NCBI GenBank assembly: GCA_045805065.1
Contig: JBJMMA010000062.1
Span: 1 to 12,719 of the forward strand
Source of the DNA: Bdellovibrionia bacterium
GTDB taxonomy: Bacteria > Bdellovibrionota > UBA1018
Reading direction: 5' to 3'
Length of the DNA: 12,719 nt
In this document: piece by piece, positions 145-12,719 of the stretch
Layout: every line of letters starts with the position of its first letter
Position numbering within the stretch: position 1 is the first letter of the stretch
Translations under genes and position numbers: made by a program
The notes under the pieces: model-generated
Database searches by the model: none
What the model was told of the DNA's origin: nothing
The model's input: only the letters and a program-made list of their open reading frames with translations

Positions 145-1233
145 TCACGTCATCTCCACTTTTGCAGATCGATTACGAAGCAGGTGATCGGCCAGAATGA
201 TTGCTGCCATCGACTCGACGATGGGGACAGCTCTTGGGACAACGCAAGGATCATGACGACCGCGGCCTTCGACCGTGACTTCTTTTCCCTCTTTGTCGAC
301 TGAGCTTTGGGGGCGCATGAGGGTTGCGACAGGCTTGAAAGCAACGCGAAACTCAATTGGCATTCCATTGCTGATTCCGCCCTGAATTCCACCCGAATGA
401 TTAGTGAGTGTCTTGACGCTGCCGCCTTCGTTGATGAACGTGTCGTTATGTTGCGAGCCGCGGAGTTCGACTCCGGAAAAGCCAGAGCCATATTCAAAAC
501 CTTTTACGGCATTGATGCTCAGCATAGCTTTGCCCAGATCCGCATGAAGCCGGTCAAAAACAGGCTCTCCAAGACCTACGGGAGTGCCTTGAATCACGCA
601 GCTGATGACGCCACCGATGGTATCGCCATCTTTTCTCACTTTCTCGATCAGAGAGATCATCTGTGCGGCAGTCTCTGGATCAGGACAGCGAATCATATTG
701 GATTCGGCCTCAGTGAGATCGAGCTCATCTGACTTTTTATTGAGTCGAATCGATCCCACCTGAGAGACATAAGCTGAAATCTCAATTCCAAACCCTTTGA
801 GCAAAAGCCTTGCGATCGCACCTGCTATGACTCGAGTCGCCGTTTCTCGCGCAGAAGAGCGGCCACCCCCTCGATAGTCGCGGTGACCGTACTTTTTGTC
901 ATAGGTGAAGTCCGCATGGGAAGGGCGATACTGATCAGCGATATGGGAGTAGTCCTTGGAGCGCTGATCTTCATTTGCAATCAGTGCCGCAATCGGTGCG
1001 CCTGTGGTCTTTCCTTCAAAAATCCCTGACACAAAGCGGACTTTGTCGGATTCCTTGCGTTGGGTTGTGATCTTGGATTGGCCTGGCTTTCTACGATCCA
1101 GTTGAAGCTGAACAAATTCTTCATCGATAGCAAGGCCCGCAGGGCAGCCGTCAATGACAACACCGATCATCTCGCCGTGGGATTCGCCAAAAGTAGTGAC
1201 GCGAAAAAGCTGTCCGATGCTATTACCTGCCAT
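145..1233 (-). CDS. aroC: Chorismate synthase
   Basis: 362 aa with signature motifs [40 protein letters not shown] and GRHDPCV. Confidence 0.98.
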
Positions 1234-1236
1234 AGC

Positions 1237-1698
1237 TTACCTCTTGCCTCGCGATTGAAGATGATTTTTGAACTCATCAATTGCGGCCGTATAGGAGTTG
1301 AATCCGAGCCCTGAGATCTGCTTCAGGCAGACCGGGGCAATTACGGATGTCTTTCGGAACTCTTCGCGCTTATGGATATCGCTGAGATGCACTTCAATGG
1401 TTGGAACCTGGATGGCGGCCACGGCATCACGAAGGGCGTAAGAGTAGTGAGTATAGGCGCCAGGGTTGAAGACAACCGCGTCGGCCCATCTTCGGTTCTT
1501 ATGAAGGAGATCAATCAGATCACCTTCGCTATTGGATTGGTGAGCGCGCATTTCAAAGCCCTGGCTTTTGGCGTAGGCCTTCAGCTTCTTCACAAGCTCA
1601 GGAAGAGTCATGGAGCCATAGACCTCAGGCTCGCGCTCGCCCAATAAATTGAGGTTTGGGCCATTCAGAACTAGAAGTTTTGTCAGTTTCTTGCTCAT
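1237..1698 (-). CDS. aroQ: Type II 3-dehydroquinate dehydratase
   Basis: 153 aa with LNGPNLNLLGEREPEVYG, QSNSEG, NPGAYTHYS and EVHLSDIHKREEFR. The start overlaps the aroB stop (ATGA). Confidence 0.97.
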   Translation of the reverse strand: MSKKLTKLLVLNGPNLNLLGEREPEVYGSMTLPELVKKLKAYAKSQGFEMRAHQSNSEGDLIDLLHKNRRWADAVVFNPGAYTHYSYALRDAVAAIQVPTIEVHLSDIHKREEFRKTSVIAPVCLKQISGLGFNSYTAAIDEFKNHLQSRGKR

Positions 1699-2816
1699 GC
1701 GCTTCCTTTCTGAAGGAGCTCAAAAGCACGAGCAATATCATCGGGAGTGACACCCGAGTCCGATACGGTTTTTCCTACGTCCTTGAGCAAGACAAAGTGA
1801 ATCTTTCCGCCGCGAACCTTTTTGTCTTTTGTCATGAGCTCAAAAAACTCATTTGGGCCAAATGTCTGCGGAAGGGCAGGGACATCAAGGCGAGCCAGCA
1901 ATGAATCCAGGCGTTCACGTTTTTTAGAGCTCAGTTTCTTGCGCACTTGAGAGAGGGCCAGGGCAAAGCGCATTCCCCAGATGACAGCTTCGCCGTGCTG
2001 GTAAGTCTCATAACGGGTCAGCGATTCGAGCGCATGGCCAAAGGTATGGCCAAAGTTCAATGCTTCACGAATGCCTTTCAAATCGAGCTCATCGCGTGCC
2101 ACCACCTTGGCTTTCCATTGGACGGACTTCTGGATCGCGCGAGTCATCATCGCAGAATCTTGAGCTAGAAGGAGGTCCAAGTTCTTGTCGAGTTCAGTTA
2201 AAAGTTTTGCATCATAAATGATGGCGTATTTTGCCACTTCTCCAAGCCCGGAGATGATTTCGCGGCGACTCAGAGTCGTTAGGAAATCCGTGTCGCAAAC
2301 CACGAGAGAGGGTTGATGAAAGGTTCCGATCAGGTTTTTTCCGGCAGCATGATTGACTGCGGTCTTTCCGCCAATTGAGCTATCGACTTGTGCCAGGAGA
2401 GTCGTGGGAACACCGACCCACGCGATTCCGCGAAGGTAAGTGGACGCAAGAAATCCCGCGGCGTCGCCCACGGATCCGCCGCCCAGTGCGAAAAGGACGG
2501 AGTCGCGGTTTGCCTTGAGTTTCAACAGCTCGCCATAAAGTGGATAGAGGTTCTTGAAGTCCTTGAGTGATTCGCCAGCCTGGACCGGGATCTCATAAGT
2601 TTCCCAGCCAGCGCTCTTCAGGCTATTCATCAGTGTTGTGCGCGCAGCGGAGAGTCGCTCATCTGCAACGATGAAGGCGCGCTTGGAAGGTGCTTTCTTC
2701 AGAAGCTTTCCGATGGATGCCGTGATCCCGGATCCAACGCAGATATCGTAGGAGCGCTTACCGAGGGAGAGGCGAACAAGAGAGGATTTCGACTTTGAGT
2801 TTGTCTTTTTTTTCAC
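1695..2816 (-). CDS. aroB: 3-dehydroquinate synthase
   Basis: 373 aa with ALGGGSVGD, PTTLLAQVDSSIGGKTAVN, KNLIGTFHQP, LNFGHTFGHALE, HGEAV and DKK. The GTG start overlaps the upstream stop (GTGA). Confidence 0.97.
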   Translation of the reverse strand: MKKKTNSKSKSSLVRLSLGKRSYDICVGSGITASIGKLLKKAPSKRAFIVADERLSAARTTLMNSLKSAGWETYEIPVQAGESLKDFKNLYPLYGELLKLKANRDSVLFALGGGSVGDAAGFLASTYLRGIAWVGVPTTLLAQVDSSIGGKTAVNHAAGKNLIGTFHQPSLVVCDTDFLTTLSRREIISGLGEVAKYAIIYDAKLLTELDKNLDLLLAQDSAMMTRAIQKSVQWKAKVVARDELDLKGIREALNFGHTFGHALESLTRYETYQHGEAVIWGMRFALALSQVRKKLSSKKRERLDSLLARLDVPALPQTFGPNEFFELMTKDKKVRGGKIHFVLLKDVGKTVSDSGVTPDDIARAFELLQKGSA

Positions 2817-4189
2817 AGGAGCTTTTCCCTGATTTCTTGGGCGGCTTGTTCAGGAGTTTTGGATGTCGTGTCGACCCTGAACGCAGCTAGATTATAGACT
2901 GGCTCACGTTCCTTGAGAAGAGACTCGATCTTGCGGCGTCTTTCTTCTTCACTGAGTTGAGCAAGGAGCGGACGGTCGTCTGATGTGCTTTTCAATCGAT
3001 GATAAAGAGTTTCAGGATCGGCACTGAGAAGAACCAACCGACCGGTTTTGACCAGAAGATCGCGTGTTTTGGGATGGATAAGGGAGCCTCCGCCCAACGA
3101 GATGACTGTCCGGGGCTGGAAGGCGTGCTTTTGAATGACGCTGTTTTCAATGTCCCGAAAGTAAGCTTCCCCTTTCAGGCGAAAGATCTCAGGGATCGAG
3201 AGGCCTGCTTCTCGAACGATTTCCTGATCCGTTTCGACGAAAGCCCAGCCGAGTTCCCGGGCCAGAAGGGGCCCGATGGTTGATTTACCCGCGCCCATAA
3301 AGCCAGTTAAAAAGATCGGGCGATAACGAAGATAGTCGCCAAGCTCGGCCGCTGGCTTTATTCCAAACCAGACTCTCCACGTCTCCAAGGCTTGCTCAAT
3401 CAGCATGTTCAGGCCGCCGATTGGAAGCAGTCCCTGTTTTTTGGACTCCTCAAGAAAGGGGGTCCATTCGGGACGATAGATGAGATCAAAGGCCCAGGCC
3501 TCTGAGTTGAATTTCAAGCCTTGAAGCTGAGAAAAGTAATCGGACGCGGGAATGCCCTCTCGCGTTTTTGGCTGAGAGCTCATGCCGAGCGGAGTGGATT
3601 GAGCGATCAGGGACCAGGCTTCGCTCTTCTTCTCAGGCTTAAGATCGCTCCAGTCTTTGCAGGACTCAAACCGGGTGTTTTTGAAGTGAGGCTGAATGGC
3701 TGAGATGAGCGCGTGAGCTCGCTCTTGATTGGGAGTGAGAAGAATCACTTGTGCCGCATTTTTCATTCCCAGAGCATAAGCCACGGCGCGCGCGGCCCCG
3801 CCGGCGCCAACAATGATCGCGTTTTTTCCGGCAAGCGAGACGCCATGCTTTTCAAATGTTCTCAAGATGCCGTAGACATCCGTATTGTAGCCTTTGAGGC
3901 CTTTCTGGGTTCTGTGAACAACGTTAACCGCGCCGATGGCTTGAGCTTCGATCGCCGTGTCGTTCAAAAGCGGAATGATTGATTCCTTATGGGGAATCGT
4001 CACGTTGAATCCGACGCCATCTAATTCGCGCCCAAAGCGCTCGACAAACTGAGCGAGCTCCTCCGGCGCGATTTCTTTTGCCGTGTACTCAAGGTCAGTG
4101 ACACCTAAGCGATTTGCCAGGAAACCGAAGATCGACGGAGACAAAGAGTGGGAAATCGGTTTTCCAATGACTGCCGCTTTTCGAGTCAT
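2813..4189 (-). CDS. aroE-aroK: Bifunctional shikimate dehydrogenase (N-terminal, aa ~1-289) / shikimate kinase (C-terminal, aa ~290-458) fusion
   Basis: AroE motifs: GKPISHSLSP, GFNVTIPHK, GAVN, GYNTD, GAGGAA, DLIY and GLNMLIEQA. AroK motifs in the same frame: IFLTGFMGAGKST (Walker A), GEAYFR, SLGGG, RPLL and REPVY. Confidence 0.93.
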   Translation of the reverse strand: MTRKAAVIGKPISHSLSPSIFGFLANRLGVTDLEYTAKEIAPEELAQFVERFGRELDGVGFNVTIPHKESIIPLLNDTAIEAQAIGAVNVVHRTQKGLKGYNTDVYGILRTFEKHGVSLAGKNAIIVGAGGAARAVAYALGMKNAAQVILLTPNQERAHALISAIQPHFKNTRFESCKDWSDLKPEKKSEAWSLIAQSTPLGMSSQPKTREGIPASDYFSQLQGLKFNSEAWAFDLIYRPEWTPFLEESKKQGLLPIGGLNMLIEQALETWRVWFGIKPAAELGDYLRYRPIFLTGFMGAGKSTIGPLLARELGWAFVETDQEIVREAGLSIPEIFRLKGEAYFRDIENSVIQKHAFQPRTVISLGGGSLIHPKTRDLLVKTGRLVLLSADPETLYHRLKSTSDDRPLLAQLSEEERRRKIESLLKEREPVYNLAAFRVDTTSKTPEQAAQEIREKLL

Positions 4190-5496
4190 CCGGTCGTCAG
4201 GTCCTTCAACGTGTCAAAGAAGCCGGGGTAGGAGATCCCAACGCACTCAGGGTGCTGGATTTCCGTCTCACCTTGAGCAATGAGGCCTGCGATGCTGAAG
4301 GCCATCGCGATGCGATGATCATGAAAGCTGTTGATCTGAGCACCACGAAGCGTTTGAGGGCCTTCGATCCGGTAGCCATCAGGGCGCACTTCAATCTGAG
4401 CGCCCATTGCGCGCAAATTCACGGCAACTGCTTCGATGCGATCGGTTTCCTTCACGCGAAGCTCTTCCGCTCCTTCCACTTCTGTGACGCCTTGAGCTTG
4501 CGATGCAAGGACTGCAAGCATCGGGAGCTCGTCAATCAGAGTAGGGACTTCTTCTTTGGAGATCTTGATGCCGCGAAGTTTGCCCGCACCCATGCCCGTG
4601 ACGCGAATCGTTCCGATAGGCTCAGGATTCTCAGAGGTCATTTGCGTTTGAACATTGGCGCCCATTCTTTCAAGCGCGCGCAAAAAACCAATGCGGGTCG
4701 GGTTGAGGACGATGTTATGAAGCTCCACTTCAGCGCCTGGGATCAGACTTGCTGCAGCCATCCAGAATGCGGCCGTGGAAGGATCTCCCGGAACCTGAAC
4801 CGTGGCCGCCTTCATCTTTTGCCCGCCCACGATGGAGACAGAGTCCGGGCGGACGTCCATTTTCACACCGAAATGCTTTAAAAGCCTTTCCGTATGATCG
4901 CGGCTATGGATCTCGCCTGTAATCGTGGTGGTACCATTTGCCAGAAGACCAGCCAGGGTGATGGCCGTTTTGATCTGTGCGCTTGCAACCTTGAGCTCGT
5001 AGGTAACGCCTTGAAGCTGAGTCCCTTTGACGGTGAGGGGAGCATAATCCTCGTTTGTGAGCGCGAATTGCGCGCCCATCTTGCGAAGTGGATCAGCAAC
5101 GCGCTTCATAGGACGGCGAACCAGAGAGTCATCGCCAGTCATGCGGGTTTCAAAACTTTGTCCGGAGAGAACTCCCATCAGAAGGCGAATCGTCGTGCCC
5201 GAGTTTCCGCAGTCCAGGGTTTCACGTGATGCTTTGAAGCCATAAAGGCCCACTCCATCGACATAAGTGCGATTTCCGCTTTTGGTGATTTTCACGCCCA
5301 GCTGCTGCAGACAGCGCGCCGTGGATTGGACGTCTCCGCTTTCAAGAATATCGATCACCTCGGTTCGACCTTCTGCAAGTGCTCCGAAGATCAATCCGCG
5401 ATGAGAGATGGATTTGTCTCCCGGAATCAGCGGACGGCCTTTGAACTTTTGAGTGGGGCGAATTTTAACGGAGGGGGTGCTCATAGTGAGATCCAT
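4186..5496 (-). CDS. aroA: 3-phosphoshikimate 1-carboxyvinyltransferase (EPSP synthase), class II-type
   Basis: Motifs PGDKSISHR, LDCGNSGTT, RRPM, SAQIK, RDHTE, NPTR, IDELP, ELRVKETDRI and DHRIAM. The true start may be the second ATG at 5484, which has GGA about 7 nt upstream. Confidence 0.97.
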   Translation of the reverse strand: MDLTMSTPSVKIRPTQKFKGRPLIPGDKSISHRGLIFGALAEGRTEVIDILESGDVQSTARCLQQLGVKITKSGNRTYVDGVGLYGFKASRETLDCGNSGTTIRLLMGVLSGQSFETRMTGDDSLVRRPMKRVADPLRKMGAQFALTNEDYAPLTVKGTQLQGVTYELKVASAQIKTAITLAGLLANGTTTITGEIHSRDHTERLLKHFGVKMDVRPDSVSIVGGQKMKAATVQVPGDPSTAAFWMAAASLIPGAEVELHNIVLNPTRIGFLRALERMGANVQTQMTSENPEPIGTIRVTGMGAGKLRGIKISKEEVPTLIDELPMLAVLASQAQGVTEVEGAEELRVKETDRIEAVAVNLRAMGAQIEVRPDGYRIEGPQTLRGAQINSFHDHRIAMAFSIAGLIAQGETEIQHPECVGISYPGFFDTLKDLTTG

Positions 5497-5607
5497 GTTA
5501 TGAGAACCGACTCGACATCGCCAATGCGATTTATTCCACGATCTCTAAAAATGTTCAGAGAACAGGCGTCAACAAATTGCCAGATAAGTGGGCTTCCATC
5601 GCTTAAG

Positions 5608-5636
5608 TTGCTTACCTTGTTCTGCTGCCTTAATCT
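5608..5636 (+). promoter_or_regulatory. Putative sigma70 promoter for the glutamate-synthase-family gene (TTGCTT-N17-TAATCT), with the -10 box 6 nt before the ATG
   Basis: TTGCTT at 5608-5613, a 17-nt spacer, TAATCT at 5631-5636 and ATG at 5643. Confidence 0.4.
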
Positions 5637-5642
5637 GGAGAG

Positions 5643-7220
5643 ATGCGCACTTTGTTTTTCGCGATTTCGGCTGTCCTCTTTGCTGCTGATGGAATGCTGG
5701 CCTATTTCTGGTCGCCCGCCATTTGGGGGCTGGCCGCACTCGTACCACTTTTTATTCTAGGATTGTGTGACATCCTGCAAAAGAAGCATTCGATCCGAAG
5801 AAACTTTCCGGTCATTGGCCATGGCAGGTATCTTCTTGAGCACATCCGGCCGGAGATCAATCAATACTTCGTCGAGTCCAACTGGGACGGGATGCCTTTC
5901 AATCGCTCCAAGCGATCCGTCGTTTACCAACGCGCGAAGGGCGTGACGGACACGGTACCTTTTGGAACTCAAACGGATGTCTACGAGACAGGTTATGAGT
6001 GGATCAATCATTCACTTGTTCCGAAACCGGTTCTCAAAGAAGAGCCTCGGGTAAGGATTGGCGGTAAAGATTGTCGTCAGCCTTATTTTGCATCGGTGTT
6101 CAACGTTTCTGCCATGAGCTATGGGTCGCTCAGTAGTAATGCGGTTCGTGCTTTGAACAGAGGCGCAAAACTGGGCGGCTTTTATCATAATACGGGCGAG
6201 GGGGGCTTAAGCCCTTATCATTTGGAGGATGGCGGAGACATCGTCTGGCAAATCGGTACGGGATACTTTGGATGCCGCGATGCTCACGGAAATTTTGACG
6301 AAGAGAATTTCAGAAAGCGCGCCACGCTTCCTCAAGTAAAAATGATCGAGCTCAAGCTTTCTCAGGGCGCAAAACCCGGGCACGGTGGCATTCTGCCTGC
6401 TGCAAAAGTCACTGAGGAGATTGCCGAGATTCGTGGTGTGGCGCAAGGCAAGGACGTGCTGTCTCCCCCGGCCCACAGTGCTTTCTCAACGCCGCGAGGA
6501 TTGTTGGAGTTTCTCGCCCGACTCAGAGAGCTTTCCGGAGGAAAGCCTGTGGGCTTCAAGCTCTGCCTTGGAAAGCATCGCGAGTTCCTGGGAATCTGCA
6601 AGGCCATGCTTCAAACGGGGATTCTTCCTGACTTCATCACAGTCGATGGGGGTGAAGGAGGAACAGGAGCGGCTCCGATGGAGTTCGCGGACTCGATCGG
6701 CACGCCTTTGAATGACGGACTCATCTTCATCCACAACTCGCTTGTCGGTATTGGGGTGCGCGATCAGATCAAAATCATCTGCTCCGGCAAGATCACAACG
6801 GGCTTTGCAATCGCCTCAAAGCTTGCTTTAGGCGCGGACCTTTGCAATTCGGCCCGTGGAATGATGTTTGCGATCGGCTGTATTCAGGCTCTGCGTTGCA
6901 ACAATAACACTTGCCCGACAGGCGTTGCGACTCAGGATCCTGATCTTGTCAAAGGACTGGACGTGGGTGACAAATCCGTCCGAGTAAAAAACTTTCACCA
7001 TGCAACCGTTCACAGCTTTTTTGAGGTCATCGCTGCTGCTGGACTATCGCACCCAAGCGAGCTCAGGCCCTGGCACATTCAGCGGCGAGTGAGCGCATGG
7101 GAAGTAAAGCATTATGGAGAGATGTATCCCTATATCGAAGCGGAAGCACTGCTGAGAACAGAGGTGCCTCAGACTTATGCACGGCCCTGGGCTGCTGCAA
7201 ACGCTGAAAGCTTTTCTTAA
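5643..7220 (+). CDS. FMN-binding glutamate synthase family protein (stand-alone synthase/FMN domain, YerD-like) with an N-terminal membrane anchor
   Basis: 525 aa with a hydrophobic N-terminus (aa 1-45), SAMSYGSLS, NTGEGG, IELKLSQGAKPGHGGILP, DGGEGGTGAAP and the [3Fe-4S] motif CIQALRCNNNTC (CX5CX4C). It has no glutamine amidotransferase domain. Confidence 0.9.
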   Translation: MRTLFFAISAVLFAADGMLAYFWSPAIWGLAALVPLFILGLCDILQKKHSIRRNFPVIGHGRYLLEHIRPEINQYFVESNWDGMPFNRSKRSVVYQRAKGVTDTVPFGTQTDVYETGYEWINHSLVPKPVLKEEPRVRIGGKDCRQPYFASVFNVSAMSYGSLSSNAVRALNRGAKLGGFYHNTGEGGLSPYHLEDGGDIVWQIGTGYFGCRDAHGNFDEENFRKRATLPQVKMIELKLSQGAKPGHGGILPAAKVTEEIAEIRGVAQGKDVLSPPAHSAFSTPRGLLEFLARLRELSGGKPVGFKLCLGKHREFLGICKAMLQTGILPDFITVDGGEGGTGAAPMEFADSIGTPLNDGLIFIHNSLVGIGVRDQIKIICSGKITTGFAIASKLALGADLCNSARGMMFAIGCIQALRCNNNTCPTGVATQDPDLVKGLDVGDKSVRVKNFHHATVHSFFEVIAAAGLSHPSELRPWHIQRRVSAWEVKHYGEMYPYIEAEALLRTEVPQTYARPWAAANAESFS

Positions 7221-7248
7221 TCAACAACCATTGTTGGCCCCATTGGCA

Positions 7249-8994
7249 TCATTGACCAACCGCTGCGCCTTCGCCTCGAGGATCGGGAACACCCACGATG
7301 CGGTGATCCGGTAGTCTTTCAACCGCGTGAACAACTCCGAGTCTTGGGCTCTCCTCGGTCTTGTAGCCTGACTTTTTCAAGGACTCTCGCACTTCAAACG
7401 GAAATGAGAGTTTTTCAAAAAGCACCGTCTCGGGTTTCCATTGATGGTGAATTCTTGGGGCAGCCACCGCGTCGGTCAACGGCATGCCGTACTCAAGTCG
7501 GTTCAGTAGACTTTGAAAAACAGCCGTGATGATCTTGGGTCCTCCTGCGGCGCCGATGGCAATCCGAACTTCTCCCTTGGAGTCGCGCACGATGGTGGGC
7601 GTCATGGAGCTCAGGGGACGTTTGCCGGGTTGGACAGAATTGGCTTCTGCTCCCACCAAGCCAAAAAGATTGGGAACGCCGGGTTGCGCGCTGAAGTCAT
7701 CCATTTGATTATTCATGACAACTCCGGTTCCGGGCGGAACAAATCCTGAGCCGAAGTTATCATTCACTGTGATGGTCATTGCGACCGCATTGCCCATCGA
7801 ATCAATGACCGAGAGGTGAGTTGTGTGAGAGGGCTCCGTGACGGTTTGACCTGCGCCCGCTGCGATGTGCGCATGATCCGGATTAAAGCTTTTCCAACGT
7901 TCATCCAAGTAATGGGAATCCAGCAGCTGGGCGAGGGGCACTGGATAAAAAGCAGGATCGCCTAAATGTTCGGCACGGTCTGCAAATGCGAGAGACATGG
8001 CGTAGGCTTCAGCGTTCAGGCTTTGAGCGGCACCCGGTCCGTTTTGCAGGAGGCGGTGATCGCGAGCTCGGTCCATGAACGCTAGCATCTGAAGCAGGGC
8101 AACTCCTCCCGAAGAAGGAGGTGGCATGGTCACAATCTCAAAGCCATGAAATTGACCTTTGAGCGGGGCGCGGGTTTCGGATTGATAATCCTTTAAGTCA
8201 GCAATTTGTAAGATACCGCCTGCGTTTTGAACTCCCGAGGCGATCTTTTCAGCGACCCATCCCGTATAGAAGCCTTGAGTTCCTTTTTTGGAGATTTCCC
8301 TCAAAGTCTTTGCAAGATCCTGTTGCTTAAGAAGAGATCCCACTTCGCAGGGATGGTCGAGGTGACCGCACCCAAAGATTCTCCTGGCCTCAGCATTCAT
8401 GATCCCCCAGCGCTCCAAGGCGGCGCGCTCTGTGTGAGTGCTGACGCGAACTCCGCGCTCTGCCATCTGAATGGGACGAATCAGAAGACTTGCACGTGAC
8501 TTGCTGCCAAAGCGCTCAAGCGCCTGAAGCCAGCCTGCGACGTTTCCGGGCACGCCCGAGGCCAGAGCACCGTTTCGGGATAAATTGGTGTCGGCTTTTC
8601 CATTTCTAAGATACATATCCCGCTTTGCGGCGCCGGGTGCTTTCTCTCTAAAATCCAAGGCCTTGCACTCTTTGGAAGCCGGGCAAAAGATCATGAATCC
8701 GCCCCCACCGATTGAGGCAAAGTGCGGTCGTGTGACGGACATGGCAAATGCGGTGGCGATGGCAGCGTCGACGGCGTTTCCGCCTTTGCGCAAAACTTCC
8801 GCCCCCCAGGAGGCTGCTTCCCGATCGTCGGCTGCAATCATGCCCTGGTTCTGAGTGCCACCCACGGGCATGCGGATGCTCTCTCCATAAAGGGGATCAG
8901 CGGCGTGACTGATGCGCGGGAAGGTGCCTAGAAGAAGAGAAAGGGAGACAAGAAGAGATAAAGATGCGTAAGTGGGTGGGAGGCGACGGTGCAT
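7249..8994 (-). CDS. ggt: Gamma-glutamyltransferase (glutathione hydrolase), exported
   Basis: 581 aa with a signal peptide, GGNAVDAAIA, SIGGGGFM, DFRE, GVPG, PPPSSGG, the autocleavage/nucleophile site HTTHLSVID, NNQMDDFS, PGKRPLSSMTP, GAAGG and DPRGEG. Confidence 0.96.
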   Translation of the reverse strand: MHRRLPPTYASLSLLVSLSLLLGTFPRISHAADPLYGESIRMPVGGTQNQGMIAADDREAASWGAEVLRKGGNAVDAAIATAFAMSVTRPHFASIGGGGFMIFCPASKECKALDFREKAPGAAKRDMYLRNGKADTNLSRNGALASGVPGNVAGWLQALERFGSKSRASLLIRPIQMAERGVRVSTHTERAALERWGIMNAEARRIFGCGHLDHPCEVGSLLKQQDLAKTLREISKKGTQGFYTGWVAEKIASGVQNAGGILQIADLKDYQSETRAPLKGQFHGFEIVTMPPPSSGGVALLQMLAFMDRARDHRLLQNGPGAAQSLNAEAYAMSLAFADRAEHLGDPAFYPVPLAQLLDSHYLDERWKSFNPDHAHIAAGAGQTVTEPSHTTHLSVIDSMGNAVAMTITVNDNFGSGFVPPGTGVVMNNQMDDFSAQPGVPNLFGLVGAEANSVQPGKRPLSSMTPTIVRDSKGEVRIAIGAAGGPKIITAVFQSLLNRLEYGMPLTDAVAAPRIHHQWKPETVLFEKLSFPFEVRESLKKSGYKTEESPRLGVVHAVERLPDHRIVGVPDPRGEGAAVGQ

Positions 8995-9000
8995 GCCGCG

Positions 9001-9029
9001 ATTATTTCACTTGCCGGTTCCATTGACAA
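9001..9029 (-). promoter_or_regulatory. Putative sigma70 promoter for ggt (TTGTCA-N17-AATAAT with an extended TGn), -10 box 6 nt before the ATG
   Basis: The minus strand reads TTGTCA atggaaccggcaagTGa AATAAT cgcggc ATG. There is no Shine-Dalgarno sequence before the ggt ATG. Confidence 0.4.
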
Positions 9030-9105
9030 ACCACACGGCAGCCGAAATTAAATTCCGTTTGATAAAGCAGAATTGTTGATTAAACTAGAAGACTAACCAA
9101 TTAAA

Positions 9106-9546
9106 GTGAGCGGCAAGATGAACGATATGAAACAAGCCTCTTCACAGTCTTCGAGTACCTTGAAGCGATCCAAAATAGTCATTATCGATGATGAAGCGCT
9201 TTTGGCTGAGACGTTGGGATGCTGGCTTGAGAACGATCATGATGTTTCTGTTTTTTCGGATTCCGTTGCGGCGTTCTCCGCGCTGAAAACGATGGACCGG
9301 TGTGACGTGATTTTCTGCGATCTCATGATGCCGAAGATGAACGGCATGGAGATCTATAAACAGCTCAGCAAAGAGGGAAAAGGTCTTGAGAAGCGCATGG
9401 TCTTTATGACAGGTGGCGCGTTCATTCCGAGCACGATTGAGTTTCTCGAGAAAGTTCCCAATCACCAGCTGGAAAAACCATTTACCATGCAGGCAGTGAA
9501 CTCAGTGATTCAAGTGATCCTGAGCGAGCAGGCGCGATCGCGTTAA
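9106..9546 (+). CDS. Single-domain (CheY-like) response regulator
   Basis: KIVIIDDE acidic pocket, DVIFCDLMMPKMNG phospho-Asp, VFMTG and LEKPF. It has no output domain. The start is uncertain: GTG 9106, ATG 9118 or ATG 9127. Confidence 0.92.
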   Translation: MSGKMNDMKQASSQSSSTLKRSKIVIIDDEALLAETLGCWLENDHDVSVFSDSVAAFSALKTMDRCDVIFCDLMMPKMNGMEIYKQLSKEGKGLEKRMVFMTGGAFIPSTIEFLEKVPNHQLEKPFTMQAVNSVIQVILSEQARSR

Positions 9547-9548
9547 GG

Positions 9549-12035
9549 TCACAGCAATCCTTTGAGCTCCTGGACTACGCAAGAGGGATGGAAAGTGTTT
9601 TGCACGGACTCCCCGGCCCTAAAAGCGGCTCTGAGGTTTTGAAGGCTAGGCGGGGCACCATTCGTCAGGCGACGAAGCTCGGGATGATCTTTCCAATGAG
9701 GAAGGTGGAGAATTGGCGCAAGGTCATCATCCGCGGTCCCGGCTTTCACGAGTGTCTCGATCCATTCCGGATGGTCTTTCCATTGAGGTTGAGAAAGGAC
9801 AAATCGAGCGATACGCCAATATTGAAAATTAGCTGTATTGAAATCCGTGACTCCTTTTTTAACGACGGAGTCGATCCATTCTGGATGATTTTTCCACTGG
9901 GGCTGAGAGAAGACATGTTCGATGAGCTCCGCTTTAGCTGTGTCTTTTTTCAGAAGGCGCTCGACCCATTCCGGATGATCTGCCCAATGAGGTTGGGAGA
10001 AAACATGTTGAGCAAGAAAGTGATCGAAGTCTCCTCGCTCTAACAGAGATTCGACCCATTCGGGATGATTCTTCCAGTACGGCTTGGAGAGGACATCTAT
10101 AGCAACGCGGATCAGTGCATCTCTGGGCGTGTTCTTATCCTTCAGTAGAGTCTCGATGAGTTCAGGGTGCTCGGTCCAATGAGGCTGCGAAAGCACCATT
10201 TGGACCGTCCAATACATGTCGCCTCTTTCCTTTAAAAGTTCGCGGACAAGTTCGGGGTGATCCTTCCAGACAGGCTGCGACAGGACGAACTTTGCGATCA
10301 TCCGATGTTGCTTGGCTTGAATGTAGTGACTGACCCATTCTGGGTGATTGTTCCAGTGAGGTTGGGTCAAGACGTTTTGCATGATCCAATCATCCATCGT
10401 CCCTTTTTTAATCAGCTCGTCGACCAGCTCGGGGTGACGTTTGGATATTGGATGCGAGAACCACTCGGTGAGAAGTGGAGTTGCTTTTTCTTCCGCAGTC
10501 TCCATGTCCGCGCGGACGATTTTGACTAATTCTCGCTCCTGGGATTCGTTGACTGCATGCAGTTTGCTTTCAATCCTTCGTTTGAGCTTTTCCAGTATGC
10601 CACGATCATCTTTGGTGAGTTGCTTGTCGTTTGCCAGCATCTGAAAGAACTCAACAGGCCCGATATTGAGGCTTTCCGGAATGACCCGGAGGGCAGCTTT
10701 GTTTTTGATGATGATATAGTCATCCGAAGCAACGGTGAAATCGGTACCTTCACGGGCACCGGGCTCCAGGTGAAAACGCACGGTGAGACCGGTTCCCCGT
10801 GCTCCCGCTCGTCCGATCCGGGTGTAAAATCCATCTCCAAACGTCGCGAGCTCGCCGCTCGCGTCATTGCGTGAAATCAGGACGTTGGAATCTCCGGTGT
10901 GAGCGCGCGTGATGCTCTCGTAGGCCAGGAAGTTATTGGTCTCGTGTGCGACGAGGTCCAGGCCGAGCTCTTTTGCGGTTTTGCCGGATCCCACTCCGAG
11001 GGGATGTGTTCTCAGTGGCTCTTTGTTCATCCACCAGGCAAGCGATTCAACAGTTGCGGGATTGCCCTGAATGGCTTCGAGTTTTTTTCGGAGCCCAAGT
11101 TTCTCGAGCGTGTCCCAGGCGTACTCGATATTGACGGCGTTCTGGATCAGCTTTTTGCCGTTTTTCTCGATCCAGTTTTTTACGTAAGGATTTTGGGTGT
11201 CTTTCTTCGGATCGAACGAATCAATGATCGCATTGATCCTGGCGGTATCTTCGGGGCGAATCTTGAGCTCGTATTGAAACGCCTTGGTGAGAAAGCGAAT
11301 CGCGGAGAGAATCGGCGGGTTGCGTCCGTCTTTGGCGAACTTCGTCGTCTCATGAAGCGGAGAGAAGTAGTAATGCAACATTCCGTCATGGACGTCCTTC
11401 AGAAAGTAAGGCTCTTTTGACTTCCAGTCTCGGACGTCTCTCACGACCGATTCACCGGCATAAGGCTTTGTGAGTTCGATCATACCCGTGGAGTTTGAGT
11501 CCGTATGCTGATTCATGAAGTCCGGGTTGTTGACGATCGCTTGTTTATCGCCCATGTCTTCGGTGAGAAGTCTGACTTCCCAGGCTGTCTTTGAGCCTTG
11601 AAGGTGAGGATATTTTTGCGCAAGCAGGTTTTGAAGCGCCTCGGCTTGCTGAGCGTTACCGTCGATCACAACGTCGAGATCCTGGGTGGATCTGTAAATA
11701 TTGGTGTAGTCGTAGTCGAAGCGATCCGGCTGAAAACGATGATCGCCCTTTTCCCGCTGCATGTCCCATTTCACATAATGAGCGTATCCGGCGGCCGTCC
11801 CGCCGAAGAGCCAGGCACGCACGCCAAGCTTTGCAGCCTCTGCCTGGATGAACCTGAACTCTTGGACTCGCGTGAGGCGATCGGCGATCCCATGCCCAAG
11901 CTCATGCAGAGAAGGCGTAGTTGAAGTGTGATAATTTTCGGCTGCCAGTGCCTGTGAGGGCAGGGGGGCGGAGTAAGATGCAAAAATCGCAAGGAACATC
12001 GCTATTTGAGCAATGAAACTAACTGAGGCCCTCAT
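9549..12035 (-). CDS. Predicted exported multidomain protein: signal peptide + CCA/poly(A)-polymerase-like nucleotidyltransferase + ADP-ribosyltransferase-like domain + ~30-aa HPEW helical repeats
   Basis: 828-aa ORF with a signal peptide ending ALA|A at about aa 31. NTase-like motifs are WLFGG, DLDVVI, WEVR, FLKDVHDGML and ILSAIRF. ART-like motifs are VAHET, FGDGFYT and DDYIII. Nine HPE repeats follow. The ORF is near certain, but the domain calls are by motif inspection only. Confidence 0.75.
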   Translation of the reverse strand: MRASVSFIAQIAMFLAIFASYSAPLPSQALAAENYHTSTTPSLHELGHGIADRLTRVQEFRFIQAEAAKLGVRAWLFGGTAAGYAHYVKWDMQREKGDHRFQPDRFDYDYTNIYRSTQDLDVVIDGNAQQAEALQNLLAQKYPHLQGSKTAWEVRLLTEDMGDKQAIVNNPDFMNQHTDSNSTGMIELTKPYAGESVVRDVRDWKSKEPYFLKDVHDGMLHYYFSPLHETTKFAKDGRNPPILSAIRFLTKAFQYELKIRPEDTARINAIIDSFDPKKDTQNPYVKNWIEKNGKKLIQNAVNIEYAWDTLEKLGLRKKLEAIQGNPATVESLAWWMNKEPLRTHPLGVGSGKTAKELGLDLVAHETNNFLAYESITRAHTGDSNVLISRNDASGELATFGDGFYTRIGRAGARGTGLTVRFHLEPGAREGTDFTVASDDYIIIKNKAALRVIPESLNIGPVEFFQMLANDKQLTKDDRGILEKLKRRIESKLHAVNESQERELVKIVRADMETAEEKATPLLTEWFSHPISKRHPELVDELIKKGTMDDWIMQNVLTQPHWNNHPEWVSHYIQAKQHRMIAKFVLSQPVWKDHPELVRELLKERGDMYWTVQMVLSQPHWTEHPELIETLLKDKNTPRDALIRVAIDVLSKPYWKNHPEWVESLLERGDFDHFLAQHVFSQPHWADHPEWVERLLKKDTAKAELIEHVFSQPQWKNHPEWIDSVVKKGVTDFNTANFQYWRIARFVLSQPQWKDHPEWIETLVKAGTADDDLAPILHLPHWKDHPELRRLTNGAPPSLQNLRAAFRAGESVQNTFHPSCVVQELKGLL
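9666..10463 (-). repeat. Intragenic tandem protein repeat, 9 units of ~29-38 aa, consensus (V)(L/F)SQP(H/Q)W(K)xHPE(W/L)(V/I)xxL(L/V)KxG
   Basis: HPE occurs at aa 534, 564, 593, 623, 657, 687, 717, 755 and 784, with spacings of 30, 29, 30, 34, 30, 30, 38 and 29. The DNA shows degenerate ccattc(c/t/g)ggatg copies. Confidence 0.92.
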
Positions 12036-12242: not shown

Positions 12243-12277
12243 CCATCTTGCCTAAATCAAATCAGGGAATGTGTTAC

Positions 12278-12719
12278 ATGAAAACCATTTATGAATTTGG
12301 TATATGGCTGATCTGCGGCGTTTTGATGGTTTCCACTCAAGCAGGACTCAGTCTTGAGACTCTGGCTTTTGGCCAAGGGCCCCGAGATTCGCAAGAGCGC
12401 CAAGATCCCCAAGATCCAATGTCTGCCGAGGAGCTGGCCCAAATCAACAGCCTCACTAAAAAATACATCAAGCCATCCAATGAATCTCTCGTGAAAATTA
12501 AGGATTCGGACCAGCACCTGAAATCCAAGAGCCTGGACGAGCCTTCAATCCAGCTTCCGGAGCCCAATGAAGTGACTCATCAGCCAGAACTGACGCGCTC
12601 ATCGGATCCGGTTGCTCAAAAGTTTGTTCTTCAGGATAAGATCACAGTTCCCGGTGGCGTCGAGGTTCGTCCTGAAGTGGGAAAATTCTCAAGCTCCAAT
12701 TTTGACATCGCCGACCGGA
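12278..12719 (+). CDS. 5' part of a predicted exported/membrane-anchored hypothetical protein, truncated by the window edge (not in the supplied ORF track)
   Basis: Open frame MKTIYEFGIWLICGVLMVSTQAGLSLETLAFGQGPRDSQERQDPQDPMSAEELAQ…SSSNFDIADR with no stop before the window end. It has an AGGGA RBS-like element at 12264-12268, a hydrophobic N-terminus and an alternative in-frame ATG at 12269. Confidence 0.75.
   Translation, partial: MKTIYEFGIWLICGVLMVSTQAGLSLETLAFGQGPRDSQERQDPQDPMSAEELAQINSLTKKYIKPSNESLVKIKDSDQHLKSKSLDEPSIQLPEPNEVTHQPELTRSSDPVAQKFVLQDKITVPGGVEVRPEVGKFSSSNFDIADR

Follow-up and report, generated by a model that had tools for sequence, protein, structure and literature searches.

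A putatively exported Bdellovibrionota protein combining a CCA-enzyme-like domain, an ADP-ribosyltransferase-like domain and a variable repeat tail

An 828-aa ORF occupies positions 9549..12035 (minus strand) of the window, by which we mean the whole 12,719-nucleotide stretch that was analysed. As judged from structure models, its product looks like a putatively exported protein in which a CCA-enzyme-like domain is followed by an ADP-ribosyltransferase (ART)-like domain and then by a repeat tail that varies. The family to which it belongs looks like an undescribed group of secreted enzymes. An earlier note had described a diverged class II CCA/poly(A)-polymerase at 11076..11858 (minus strand). 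This span corresponds to aa 60-320, is carried entirely by the 828-aa ORF and lies inside the nucleotidyltransferase domain; it is real, with its motifs in place, but incomplete, as the putative signal peptide, the ART-like domain and the tail all fall outside it. The proposal of a lone RNA-end polymerase of altered specificity is too narrow a reading because the protein appears to be exported, ends in a repeat tail that varies and is one member of a large family that has undergone expansion.

The first 31 residues (11943..12035, minus strand) read in translation as a putative Sec-type signal peptide, with a charged start, a hydrophobic core and A29-L30-A31 ahead of a putative cleavage site; no lipobox Cys is present within aa 1-31 of the translation. 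A similar hydrophobic region precedes the catalytic module in 177 of the 195 relatives having at least 20 residues there, and the paralogues from the same genome also have a signal-peptide-like N-terminus. On the strength of these N-terminal sequences, the 828-aa protein is probably exported.

The nucleotidyltransferase domain extends over aa ~47-339 (11019..11897, minus strand) and comprises a class II (CCA/poly(A))-like head, a neck and a short helical stretch, as delimited from the AF2 model, Foldseek, VIA structural alignment and conservation. All nine motifs on which the class II assignment had been founded occur where they were placed in the 828-aa translation: AWLFGG (aa 74-79), DLDVVI (aa 119-124, with D119-D121 at nt 11681-11673), WEVR (aa 152-155), DFMNQHTDSNSTGMIEL (aa 172-188), FLKDVHDGMLHY (aa 211-222), KFAKDGRNPPILSAIRF (aa 232-248), ELKIRPEDTARI (aa 256-267), WIEKNGKKLIQ (aa 288-298) and AWDTLEKLGL (aa 306-315).

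The class II assignment finds its support in the predicted fold but not in sequence profiles. The 828-aa protein matched PolyA_pol in neither Pfam nor NCBIfam at E ≤ 10, and PF01743 recognised none of 38 family members at E ≤ 10 and none of 47 at E ≤ 0.001. PDB sequences gave no match either, by phmmer or with the family profile. When the N-terminal part of the family was compared by hhalign with 24 canonical class II enzymes of Bdellovibrionota, three short collinear local matches were obtained (GG, DxD and 'ILSAIRF'), with scores of 24.5, 22.5 and 18.7, against 17.0 for a reversed control and 13.0-22.4 over ten column shuffles. This similarity is at noise level and does not go beyond the shuffle controls, and no sequence profile ties either domain of the protein to its proposed superfamily. 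One other candidate, the Legionella type II secretion substrate NttE/Lpg0189 (PF24274, NF037977; PMC7325957), gave E-values of 0.083 and 0.086 and 12-12.5 bits where the cut-offs are 27 and 100; as only 1 of 38 members matched, it was dismissed as chance.

At the structure level, the models indicate that the motif resemblance exceeds chance. The AF2 model of the module (pLDDT 92.9, pTM 0.91) retrieved 3h3a_B by Foldseek with an E-value of 3.5e-5, and CCA- and A-adding enzymes came topmost among 23 matches at E ≤ 0.001. By VIA, 3h39_B aligned with model residues 18-357 (Z 11.6, 209 residues, rmsd 4.3), and in the exhaustive VIA comparison the PDB representatives with Z of at least 8 were all class II tRNA nucleotidyltransferases or their relatives (8 of 8, Z 8.1-11.6). 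The sole neighbours in a viral structure library were likewise of the tRNA nucleotidyltransferase type, with E about 1e-3. Other nucleotidyltransferases were more distant: the eukaryotic FAM46/TENT5 non-canonical poly(A) polymerases (6JYJ, 6W36, 8EXE), which also have a nucleotidyltransferase head and a helical domain, gave a clearly weaker match (Z 6.5-7.7) than class II enzymes, and minimal nucleotidyltransferases (1wot, 8xeh, 1no5) reached Z 4.0-4.9 against the model. These models argue for the presence of a Pol-beta-type head and helical neck fold.

The head and neck fold is common to the class II enzymes, represented by the CCA-adding enzyme of Thermotoga maritima (3H39/3H3A/5HC9), the A-adding and CC-adding enzymes of Aquifex aeolicus (4WBY/1VFG and 3WFO) and E. 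coli PAP I (3AQL), with Z 10.1-11.6 over 209-266 residues. The hGG motif and the DxD also appear to be shared, together with a third carboxylate that lies on the following strand. The motif B Asp lies here in a 'D-S-N-S-T-G-M' context, like 'D-F-T-I-N-A-M' in class II enzymes, and the neck helix reads 'ILSAIRF' where class II enzymes have 'LLRAVRF'. In a set of 236 sequences diverged to about 49% identity, the putative metal-binding carboxylates are kept, as had been claimed: D119 and D121 are each present in 235 of 236, and position 153 is acidic throughout (229 E, 7 D). G78/G79 are conserved in 234 of 236 relatives; R155, Q176, D179, S182, G184, H228 and N239 are found in all 236, and R247 is also among the conserved residues of the domain.

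The same alignment bears out the loss of the RRD and EDxxR motifs. At the RRD site, matched by motif context and not by superposition, the family reads H177 (212/236), T178 (206/236) and D179 (236/236), the RR thus being replaced by H/T and D179 being the sole invariant residue. In the EDxxR region (aa 233-241), position 236 is variable (E in 117, A in 30, Q in 22 and D in 12), position 235 is K or R, and H228, T231 and N239 are invariant instead. The spacing between GG and DxD is indeed 39 residues, a conserved insert where class II enzymes have about 12. Judged from the conserved residues and the predicted fold, the nucleotidyltransferase domain is probably catalytically competent, though strongly diverged.

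The protein also differs from class II enzymes in being putatively exported, in its fusion to an ART-fold domain and a repeat tail, in its roughly 20 copies per genome, and in lacking the helical body and tail. Of the 'head-neck-body' architecture that had been proposed, the head and neck therefore stand and the body does not: structural alignments stop near aa 339, beyond which the model becomes beta-rich, and the class II helical body/tail for tRNA gives way in the next 127 residues to an ART-like fold.

This second domain (aa ~343-469; 10629..11009, minus strand), delimited from VIA, a domain-only model, an Atlas search and conservation, is predicted to have an ADP-ribosyltransferase fold, with Z-scores of at most 5.7. 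When the whole module was submitted to VIA, KptA (9ld6_A, Z 5.7) and PARP10/12/14/16 (Z 5.2-5.5) aligned on model residues 314-440. The domain-only model (pLDDT 90.1) was compared exhaustively by VIA with 48,161 chains: the top Z was 5.2, and about 45 of the best 50 matches were ART-fold proteins, as judged from their titles and background knowledge. Matches include KptA/Tpt1, PARPs and diphtheria-toxin-like chains, as well as the pseudo-PARP 6tl1_B. The top match in the Atlas structural search was an RNA 2'-phosphotransferase (TM 0.50). By Foldseek, the isolated domain gave nothing at E ≤ 0.001; Pfam ART models did not match it, and the Tox-ART-HYD1 and Tox-ART-HYE1 models found no match in the genome at E ≤ 10.

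The domain is most readily likened to the H-Y-[E/D] clade, namely the NAD+ lobe of Tpt1/KptA (9LD3/9LD6), PARP10/12/14/16 and the diphtheria toxin catalytic domain. Tpt1/KptA is two-lobed, and its N-terminal RNA-binding lobe carries the catalytic Arg-His-Arg-Arg tetrad. Only the NAD+ lobe aligns here (chain residues 91-180); the Tpt1 N-lobe is absent, and the Tpt1/KptA family (PF01885) gives no Pfam match. As modelled, the domain appears to share with the clade a split beta-sheet core (about 110 residues) whose first strand bears an invariant His, a G-x-G-F-Y strand with an invariant Tyr and, further on, a near-invariant acidic residue. Among the 236 relatives, H364 is present in 236, S388 in 235, R389 in 233, G402-x-Y404 in 235 and D432 in 234. 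H364, Y404 and D432 are equated with the H-Y-acidic triad by strand order in the model and not by superposition. The Tyr strand reads 'GDGFYT', and 'GFY' is listed in PMC3482391 as the signature of Tox-ART-HYD2, one of the Tox-ART-HYD families of polymorphic toxins. The domain departs from H-Y-[E/D] ARTs by its Z of 4-5.7, by the likely use of Asp rather than Glu as third residue and by its position C-terminal to a nucleotidyltransferase. The choice of third residue follows from conservation only; the variable position 439 precedes a 'YIII' strand, as the PARP Glu does.

A protein with one catalytic domain only would accommodate some of these features: the nucleotidyltransferase-like domain could be a regulator of an active ART or a platform for it that binds nucleotide or RNA, or the ART-like domain an NAD+/ADP-ribose-binding module for an active nucleotidyltransferase. 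The loss of the RRD and EDxxR template motifs, the uncertain third catalytic position and weak similarity of the ART domain, and the presence of pseudo-PARP domains (6tl1_B) among its neighbours all point this way. However, the expected catalytic residues are near-invariant in both domains over 236 sequences, which is hard to reconcile with a pure scaffold, and we regard this reading as rather unlikely.

The remainder of the protein (aa 470-828; 9549..10628, minus strand) is a variable C-terminal tail with eight repeats of ~30 residues containing 'P-x-W-x-x-H-P-E' (aa 559-786). The tail matches no Pfam family, and no DNA tandem repeat underlies its protein repeats; it is probably an alpha-helical solenoid. 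Between the 21 paralogues, median identity falls from 69% in the module to 22% in the tail, where 63 of 210 pairs gave no HSP. In some relatives the tail is of HEAT_2, Ank or FGE-sulfatase type. The tail may serve as a targeting device.

The genome holds 27 matches to the family, of which 21 are full-length ORFs, with tandem arrays of 4, 3 and 3. On a different contig it also encodes one canonical PolyA_pol protein (PF01743, 124.3 bits) with the motifs GGSVRD, RRDFTINA and EDALRLLRAVRF, the sole hit when the whole genome was searched for this family. This canonical gene, the putative signal peptide and the 21 full-length paralogues agree with the earlier note that the protein is not a housekeeping CCA enzyme. 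They equally tell against a stand-alone nucleotidyltransferase of the CCA/poly(A)-polymerase type that would act on 3' ends of the cell's own RNA with a changed preference for NTP or acceptor. The class II fold, the conserved carboxylates and the collinear order of the motifs would suit such an enzyme, but the tails of the paralogues vary and an ART-fold domain sits where the tRNA-binding helical body/tail would be; this makes it very unlikely in our view.

The gene lies between a shikimate/GGT neighbourhood on one side and a response regulator on the other. Promoter and terminator scans gave chance-level results only. Within the window, no immunity gene stands beside it and no dedicated secretion partner is obvious. 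The absence of a neighbouring immunity gene is unusual for a cytotoxic enzyme.

The lack of such partners in the window, together with the putative Sec signal and with variable repeat tails resembling binding modules, would be compatible with an envelope or surface family of the producer itself, such as adhesins or sensors with ligand-binding tails, whose head modifies the cell's own periplasmic or surface components. Both putative transferase sites are strictly conserved, though, and the periplasm ordinarily offers neither NTPs nor NAD+; we hold this possibility to be unlikely. A component of anti-phage defence, combining a nucleotidyltransferase with an NAD+-using effector, seems hardly probable at all. 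Defence systems repeatedly contain nucleotidyltransferase and NAD+-consuming domains, and an Atlas search on language-model features placed clusters of the Gad2 type (Gad2, PF26128) nearest, at a score of 0.87-0.88 and with 122-125 features in common; this is no more than a lead. Against it stand the lack of any PADLOC match to 3 family members at E ≤ 1, the putative signal peptide, the twenty paralogues per genome and a locus outside any defence island.

On balance, with little more than even confidence, we favour a Sec-exported modular enzyme with a two-enzyme head, in which constant catalytic domains are combined with variable targeting tails and act in another cell. The signal peptide would direct export by Sec, and the nucleotidyltransferase domain, packed against the H-Y-D ART-fold domain, would form with it one conserved 'head' of ~435 residues. 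Once the protein is outside, its paralogue-specific helical-repeat tail would bind a target, which the head would then modify covalently by two chemistries. The first would be transfer of NMP from NTP by a putative two-metal site (D119/D121/E153), with a putative nucleotide pocket (H228, T231, N239 and R247, and H177-T178-D179 in place of RRD) that is the same in all paralogues and unlike the CCA template. The second would be transfer of ADP-ribose from NAD+ by H364/Y404/D432. Since NTPs and NAD+ are cytoplasmic, the head would most likely act inside another cell, prey or host, or on its contents. The roughly 20 paralogues would then form an arsenal in which a single warhead is combined with many different targeting tails. 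The analysis shows the gene, its motifs, two folds as predicted, the conservation of residues, the expansion into paralogues and a head that stays constant while the tail varies; export, catalysis, the substrates, activity in a foreign cell and targeting by the tail are inferences.

A functional analogy may exist with MenT/AbiEii-type nucleotidyltransferase toxins, which are reported to extend tRNA acceptor ends (PMC10435456), in that a Pol-beta-superfamily enzyme would serve as a weapon against RNA 3' ends. MenT toxins differ from the present family in being minimal nucleotidyltransferases, having antitoxins and being cytoplasmic.

The two active sites might also work in series on one substrate, producing a combined modification beyond the reach of either enzyme class by itself, with the roughly 20 variable tails directing it to different targets in prey or host; we think this improbable. 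The CCA-like domain could, for instance, bind an RNA 3' end (a tRNA acceptor end, say) or lengthen it, while the Tpt1/PARP-like domain would ADP-ribosylate the terminal ribose or a neighbouring 5'-phosphate. Or protein-bound ADP-ribose could be the substrate that the nucleotidyltransferase caps or lengthens. If true, a series mechanism would make these proteins of uncultured Bdellovibrionota a lineage-specific, programmable arsenal of effectors.

In public data, the family comprises 647 clusters at 50% identity, and its named relatives all come from uncultured Bdellovibrionota-type MAGs. Both folds are already known. None of the Pfam, NCBIfam and PADLOC models searched covers the family, its architecture or its scale, and the literature search returned no description of it. 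If active, the favoured two-enzyme head would define a new class of secreted dual-chemistry enzymes in a phylum known for predatory bacteria, and the class II scaffold, otherwise known from tRNA 3'-end and poly(A) synthesis, would here have been recruited for conflict. Its changed nucleotide pocket makes specificity accessible to direct testing, and the constant head with a variable tail offers a ready experimental handle on target recognition. Distant relatives with only the nucleotidyltransferase or only the ART domain occur in two other genomes, and none is explained by Pfam. The short 'stand-alone' forms look like truncations, one of which stops just past the ART His.

The segment 11076..11858 (-), which an earlier note had read as a diverged class II CCA/poly(A)-polymerase, corresponds to residues 60-320 of a single long ORF (9549..12035, -; 828 aa). 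Its motifs were located by script in the translation and checked at the residue and nucleotide levels: AWLFGG lies at aa 74-79, DLDVVI at aa 119-124 (D119-D121, nt 11681-11673), WEVR at aa 152-155, DFMNQHTDSNSTGMIEL at aa 172-188, FLKDVHDGMLHY at aa 211-222, KFAKDGRNPPILSAIRF at aa 232-248, ELKIRPEDTARI at aa 256-267, WIEKNGKKLIQ at aa 288-298 and AWDTLEKLGL at aa 306-315. Since every motif, as well as the 39-residue gap between GG and DxD, is found where it had been placed, the original observation is correct as a description. The resemblance to class II enzymes built on it could not be demonstrated by sequence methods but was supported by predicted structure. Neither the protein (Pfam/NCBIfam) nor any of 38 aligned relatives matched PolyA_pol even at E<=10, none of 47 further relatives did so at E<=0.001, and nothing relevant was retrieved from all PDB sequences with phmmer or with the family profile. 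The N-terminal 300 columns of the family were also compared by hhalign with an alignment of 24 canonical class II sequences taken from genomes of this phylum. The three highest-scoring local alignments ran collinear and fell on the motifs of the earlier note, pairing 'GVRAWLFGG' with canonical 'GfxAYLVGG' (GG motif, score 22.5), 'RSTQDLDVVIDG' with 'pKDFDIATSA' (DxD motif, 24.5) and 'ILSAIRF...ELKI' with 'LLRAVRF...GFSL' (18.7). Taken alone, these alignments lack significance, since the controls scored no weaker (reversed query, 17.0; top scores of ten column shuffles, 13.0-22.4).

By predicted structure, the likeness to class II enzymes is clear. AlphaFold2, run template-free on a 38-sequence alignment, gave a model of residues 30-470 with a mean pLDDT of 92.9 and a pTM of 0.91. 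Foldseek against the PDB gave 23 matches at E<=0.001 (best 3h3a_B, E 3.5e-5), and every top row was a CCA-adding or related tRNA nucleotidyltransferase. VIA-align superposed model residues 18-357 on 3h39_B with a Z of 11.6 (209 residues aligned, rmsd 4.3) and gave the same Z for 4wby. VIA was also run exhaustively over 48,161 PDB representatives, without relying on Foldseek; eight chains reached Z of at least 8, each of them a class II tRNA nucleotidyltransferase or a relative (4wby_A 11.6, 3h37_A 11.2, 3wfo_A 10.6, 3aql_A 10.1, 1miv_A 9.8, 1ou5_A 8.6, 9kma_A 8.4 and 2la3 8.1); the next family was FAM46B, at Z 6.5. The structural neighbours of the Atlas's own model are likewise PolyA_pol clusters (TM 0.40-0.50).

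Conservation was assessed on 236 family members, down to ~49% identity, aligned to the family HMM. The putative metal-binding carboxylates are retained: D119 and D121 in 235/236 sequences each, and position 153 as E in 229 and D in the other 7. The model places D121 on a strand, with D119 immediately ahead of that strand and E153 on the next one, an order consistent with the usual Pol-beta arrangement. G78 and G79 are kept in 234 members and R247 in 235, while R155, Q176, D179, S182, G184, H228 and N239 are invariant. The family signature 'H-T-D179-S-N-S-T-G-M-I' resembles canonical 'R-R-D-F-T-I-N-A-M', with the Asp of RRD (motif B) retained and H177 (212/236) and T178 (206/236) standing in for the two Arg. 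At the expected place of EDxxR, the 236 sequences share no conserved Glu-Asp pair (position 236 is E in 117, A in 30, Q in 22 and D in 12); the invariant residues nearby are instead H228, T231 and N239. The 39-residue insert between GG and DxD is itself well conserved. With the carboxylates conserved and the RRD and EDxxR residues altered, it is reasonable to suppose, as the earlier note did, that the enzyme is probably active and that its nucleotide pocket has changed.

Three features of the protein go beyond the earlier note: a putative ART-fold domain, a likely signal peptide and a variable tail. Alignments to class II structures stop near residue 339, and the next ~127 residues are beta-rich in the model. 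In the whole-module VIA search, this part resembled KptA/Tpt1 (9ld6_A, Z 5.7, 79 aligned, rmsd 3.0) and the PARP10/12/14/16 catalytic domains (Z 5.2-5.5), and the Atlas's top structural row for it was an RNA 2'-phosphotransferase (TM 0.50). Folded alone, aa 325-490 reached a pLDDT of 90.1; Foldseek with this model gave no match at E<=0.001, and exhaustive VIA gave Z of at least 5 for only three chains, KptA (5.2), diphtheria toxin (5.2) and a cyanophage ejectosome protein (5.1). Judged by title, ~45 of the 50 VIA rows listed are NAD+-using ART-fold proteins, including PARPs, Tpt1, diphtheria-toxin homologues, MbcT, RES, ParT, Tne2, Scabin, DarT, Arr, ExoS, exotoxin A, cholix and pertussis toxin. 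H364 (236/236), S388 (235), R389 (233), Y404 in 'GDGFYT' (235) and D432 (234) are conserved, and position 439, just before the 'YIII' strand, is variable. We assign aa ~343-469 to an H-Y-D type ART domain, though only provisionally, because the Z-scores are low and no Pfam ART model matches the family. One of the two head domains may alternatively be a non-catalytic platform, a reading to be weighed against the strict conservation of both transferase sites. In another genome of the phylum, a 612-aa protein (L114, G142:C52, ORF 1871..3709, -) matches the ART-fold part only, at 35% identity over module-query residues 301-439 of 441 (aa ~330-468 of the studied protein), so the two head domains also occur apart.

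In the translation, aa 1-31 resemble a Sec signal peptide, with a charged start, a hydrophobic core and A-L-A before the predicted cleavage site, without Cys. Ahead of the module, a similar hydrophobic stretch is present in 177 of the 195 relatives with at least 20 residues there (41 others, whose start lies too near the module to judge, were left out) and in all full-length copies of the own genome. In one paralogue (C176:3342..6950, -), ~440 residues of the longest ORF lie ahead of the module, where the other 20 copies have 30-55; its start codon may be misassigned, or an additional domain may be present. Long N-terminal extensions also occur in seven public-data relatives. The tail (aa 470-828) contains eight ~30-residue repeats with 'PxWxxHPE' and matches no Pfam family; segments of HEAT, ankyrin, FGE-sulfatase or RasGEF-like type occur now and then in the tails of relatives. 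Taken together, the results best fit a modular enzyme that is exported. Its constant head would combine a diverged nucleotidyltransferase of class II type and an ART-fold domain, and its variable repeat tail has a probable role in target selection. Since NTPs and NAD+ belong to the cytoplasm and the head appears to be exported with both transferase sites strictly conserved, its most likely place of action is another cell, or the contents released from one; the phylum is known for predatory bacteria. The cytoplasmic RNA enzyme of the earlier note would have to accommodate the signal-peptide-like stretch, and an envelope role in the producer itself, compatible with export, would have to accommodate the cytoplasmic location of NTPs and NAD+. 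For the exported enzyme, the nearest structural relatives of both domains (CCA-type enzymes, Tpt1/KptA) work at the ends of RNA, pointing to nucleic-acid termini as possible substrates, whereas tails of protein-binding type suggest proteins instead.

The own genome (4.22 Mb, 262 contigs, 94% complete) gave 27 tblastn matches and 26 ORFs matching the family HMM, 21 of them full-length, including tandem arrays of four, three and three genes. Median identity among these paralogues is 69% for heads and 22% for tails, 63 of 210 tail pairs having no significant HSP. Public data yielded 546 relatives among 7,999 candidates scored (90% clustered set); at 50% identity there were 647 clusters, of which 468 had E<=1e-30. 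In a collection of species-representative genomes, 169 stretches encode relatives; the 78 loci listed all come from uncultured MAGs, many multi-copy, labelled Bacteriovoracaceae, Pseudobdellovibrionaceae, Bdellovibrionales/-ia/-ota, Oligoflexia or the older Deltaproteobacteria/Proteobacteria. An even sample of the phylum gave matches in 13 of 201 genomes, so the distribution is patchy. A component of anti-phage defence is a further but unlikely alternative to the exported enzyme, to be weighed against the signal-peptide-like stretch and the number of paralogues. Although neither fold is new, no description seems to exist of the family, its architecture or its expansion. Full-text literature searches (Bdellovibrio with ART and nucleotidyltransferase; ART fused to CCA-adding enzyme) gave no account of such a family, the papers on Tox-ART-HYD do not cover it, and a comparative genomics paper on Bdellovibrionota (PMC11656739) does not mention nucleotidyltransferase, ribosyl, signal peptide or paralog. 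In a second genome (L113, G103:C27:6000-24000), three ~1150-1230-aa proteins (1997..5437, 5551..9060 and 13809..17495) carry a distant nucleotidyltransferase part only (25-28% identity), none of them explained by Pfam; they flank a 1525-aa double-AAA+/peptidase M41 (FtsH-like) protein (9205..13782).

The own genome carries a single canonical PolyA_pol gene, complete in its class II motifs, on another contig, and 30 of 31 sampled genomes of the phylum also have a canonical gene; the studied protein is therefore not the housekeeping CCA enzyme, in agreement with the earlier note. No candidate immunity or partner gene is evident in the window. A stand-alone response-regulator receiver protein (9106..9546, +; 146 aa) is convergent with the studied gene, their stop codons 3 nt apart, and a divergent unannotated ORF (12248..12718, +; 157 aa, open at its 3' end) has no Pfam match at E<=0.001 and runs off the contig end. 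A gamma-glutamyltranspeptidase gene (7249..8994, -) adjoins one for a 525-aa protein with the Glu_synthase conserved region only (5643..7220, +). The remainder is a compact shikimate-pathway operon (145..5496, -) with overlapping or abutting genes for EPSP synthase (4186..5496, -), a fused shikimate dehydrogenase-shikimate kinase (2813..4189, -; 458 aa), 3-dehydroquinate synthase (1695..2816, -), type II dehydroquinase (1237..1698, -) and chorismate synthase (145..1233, -).
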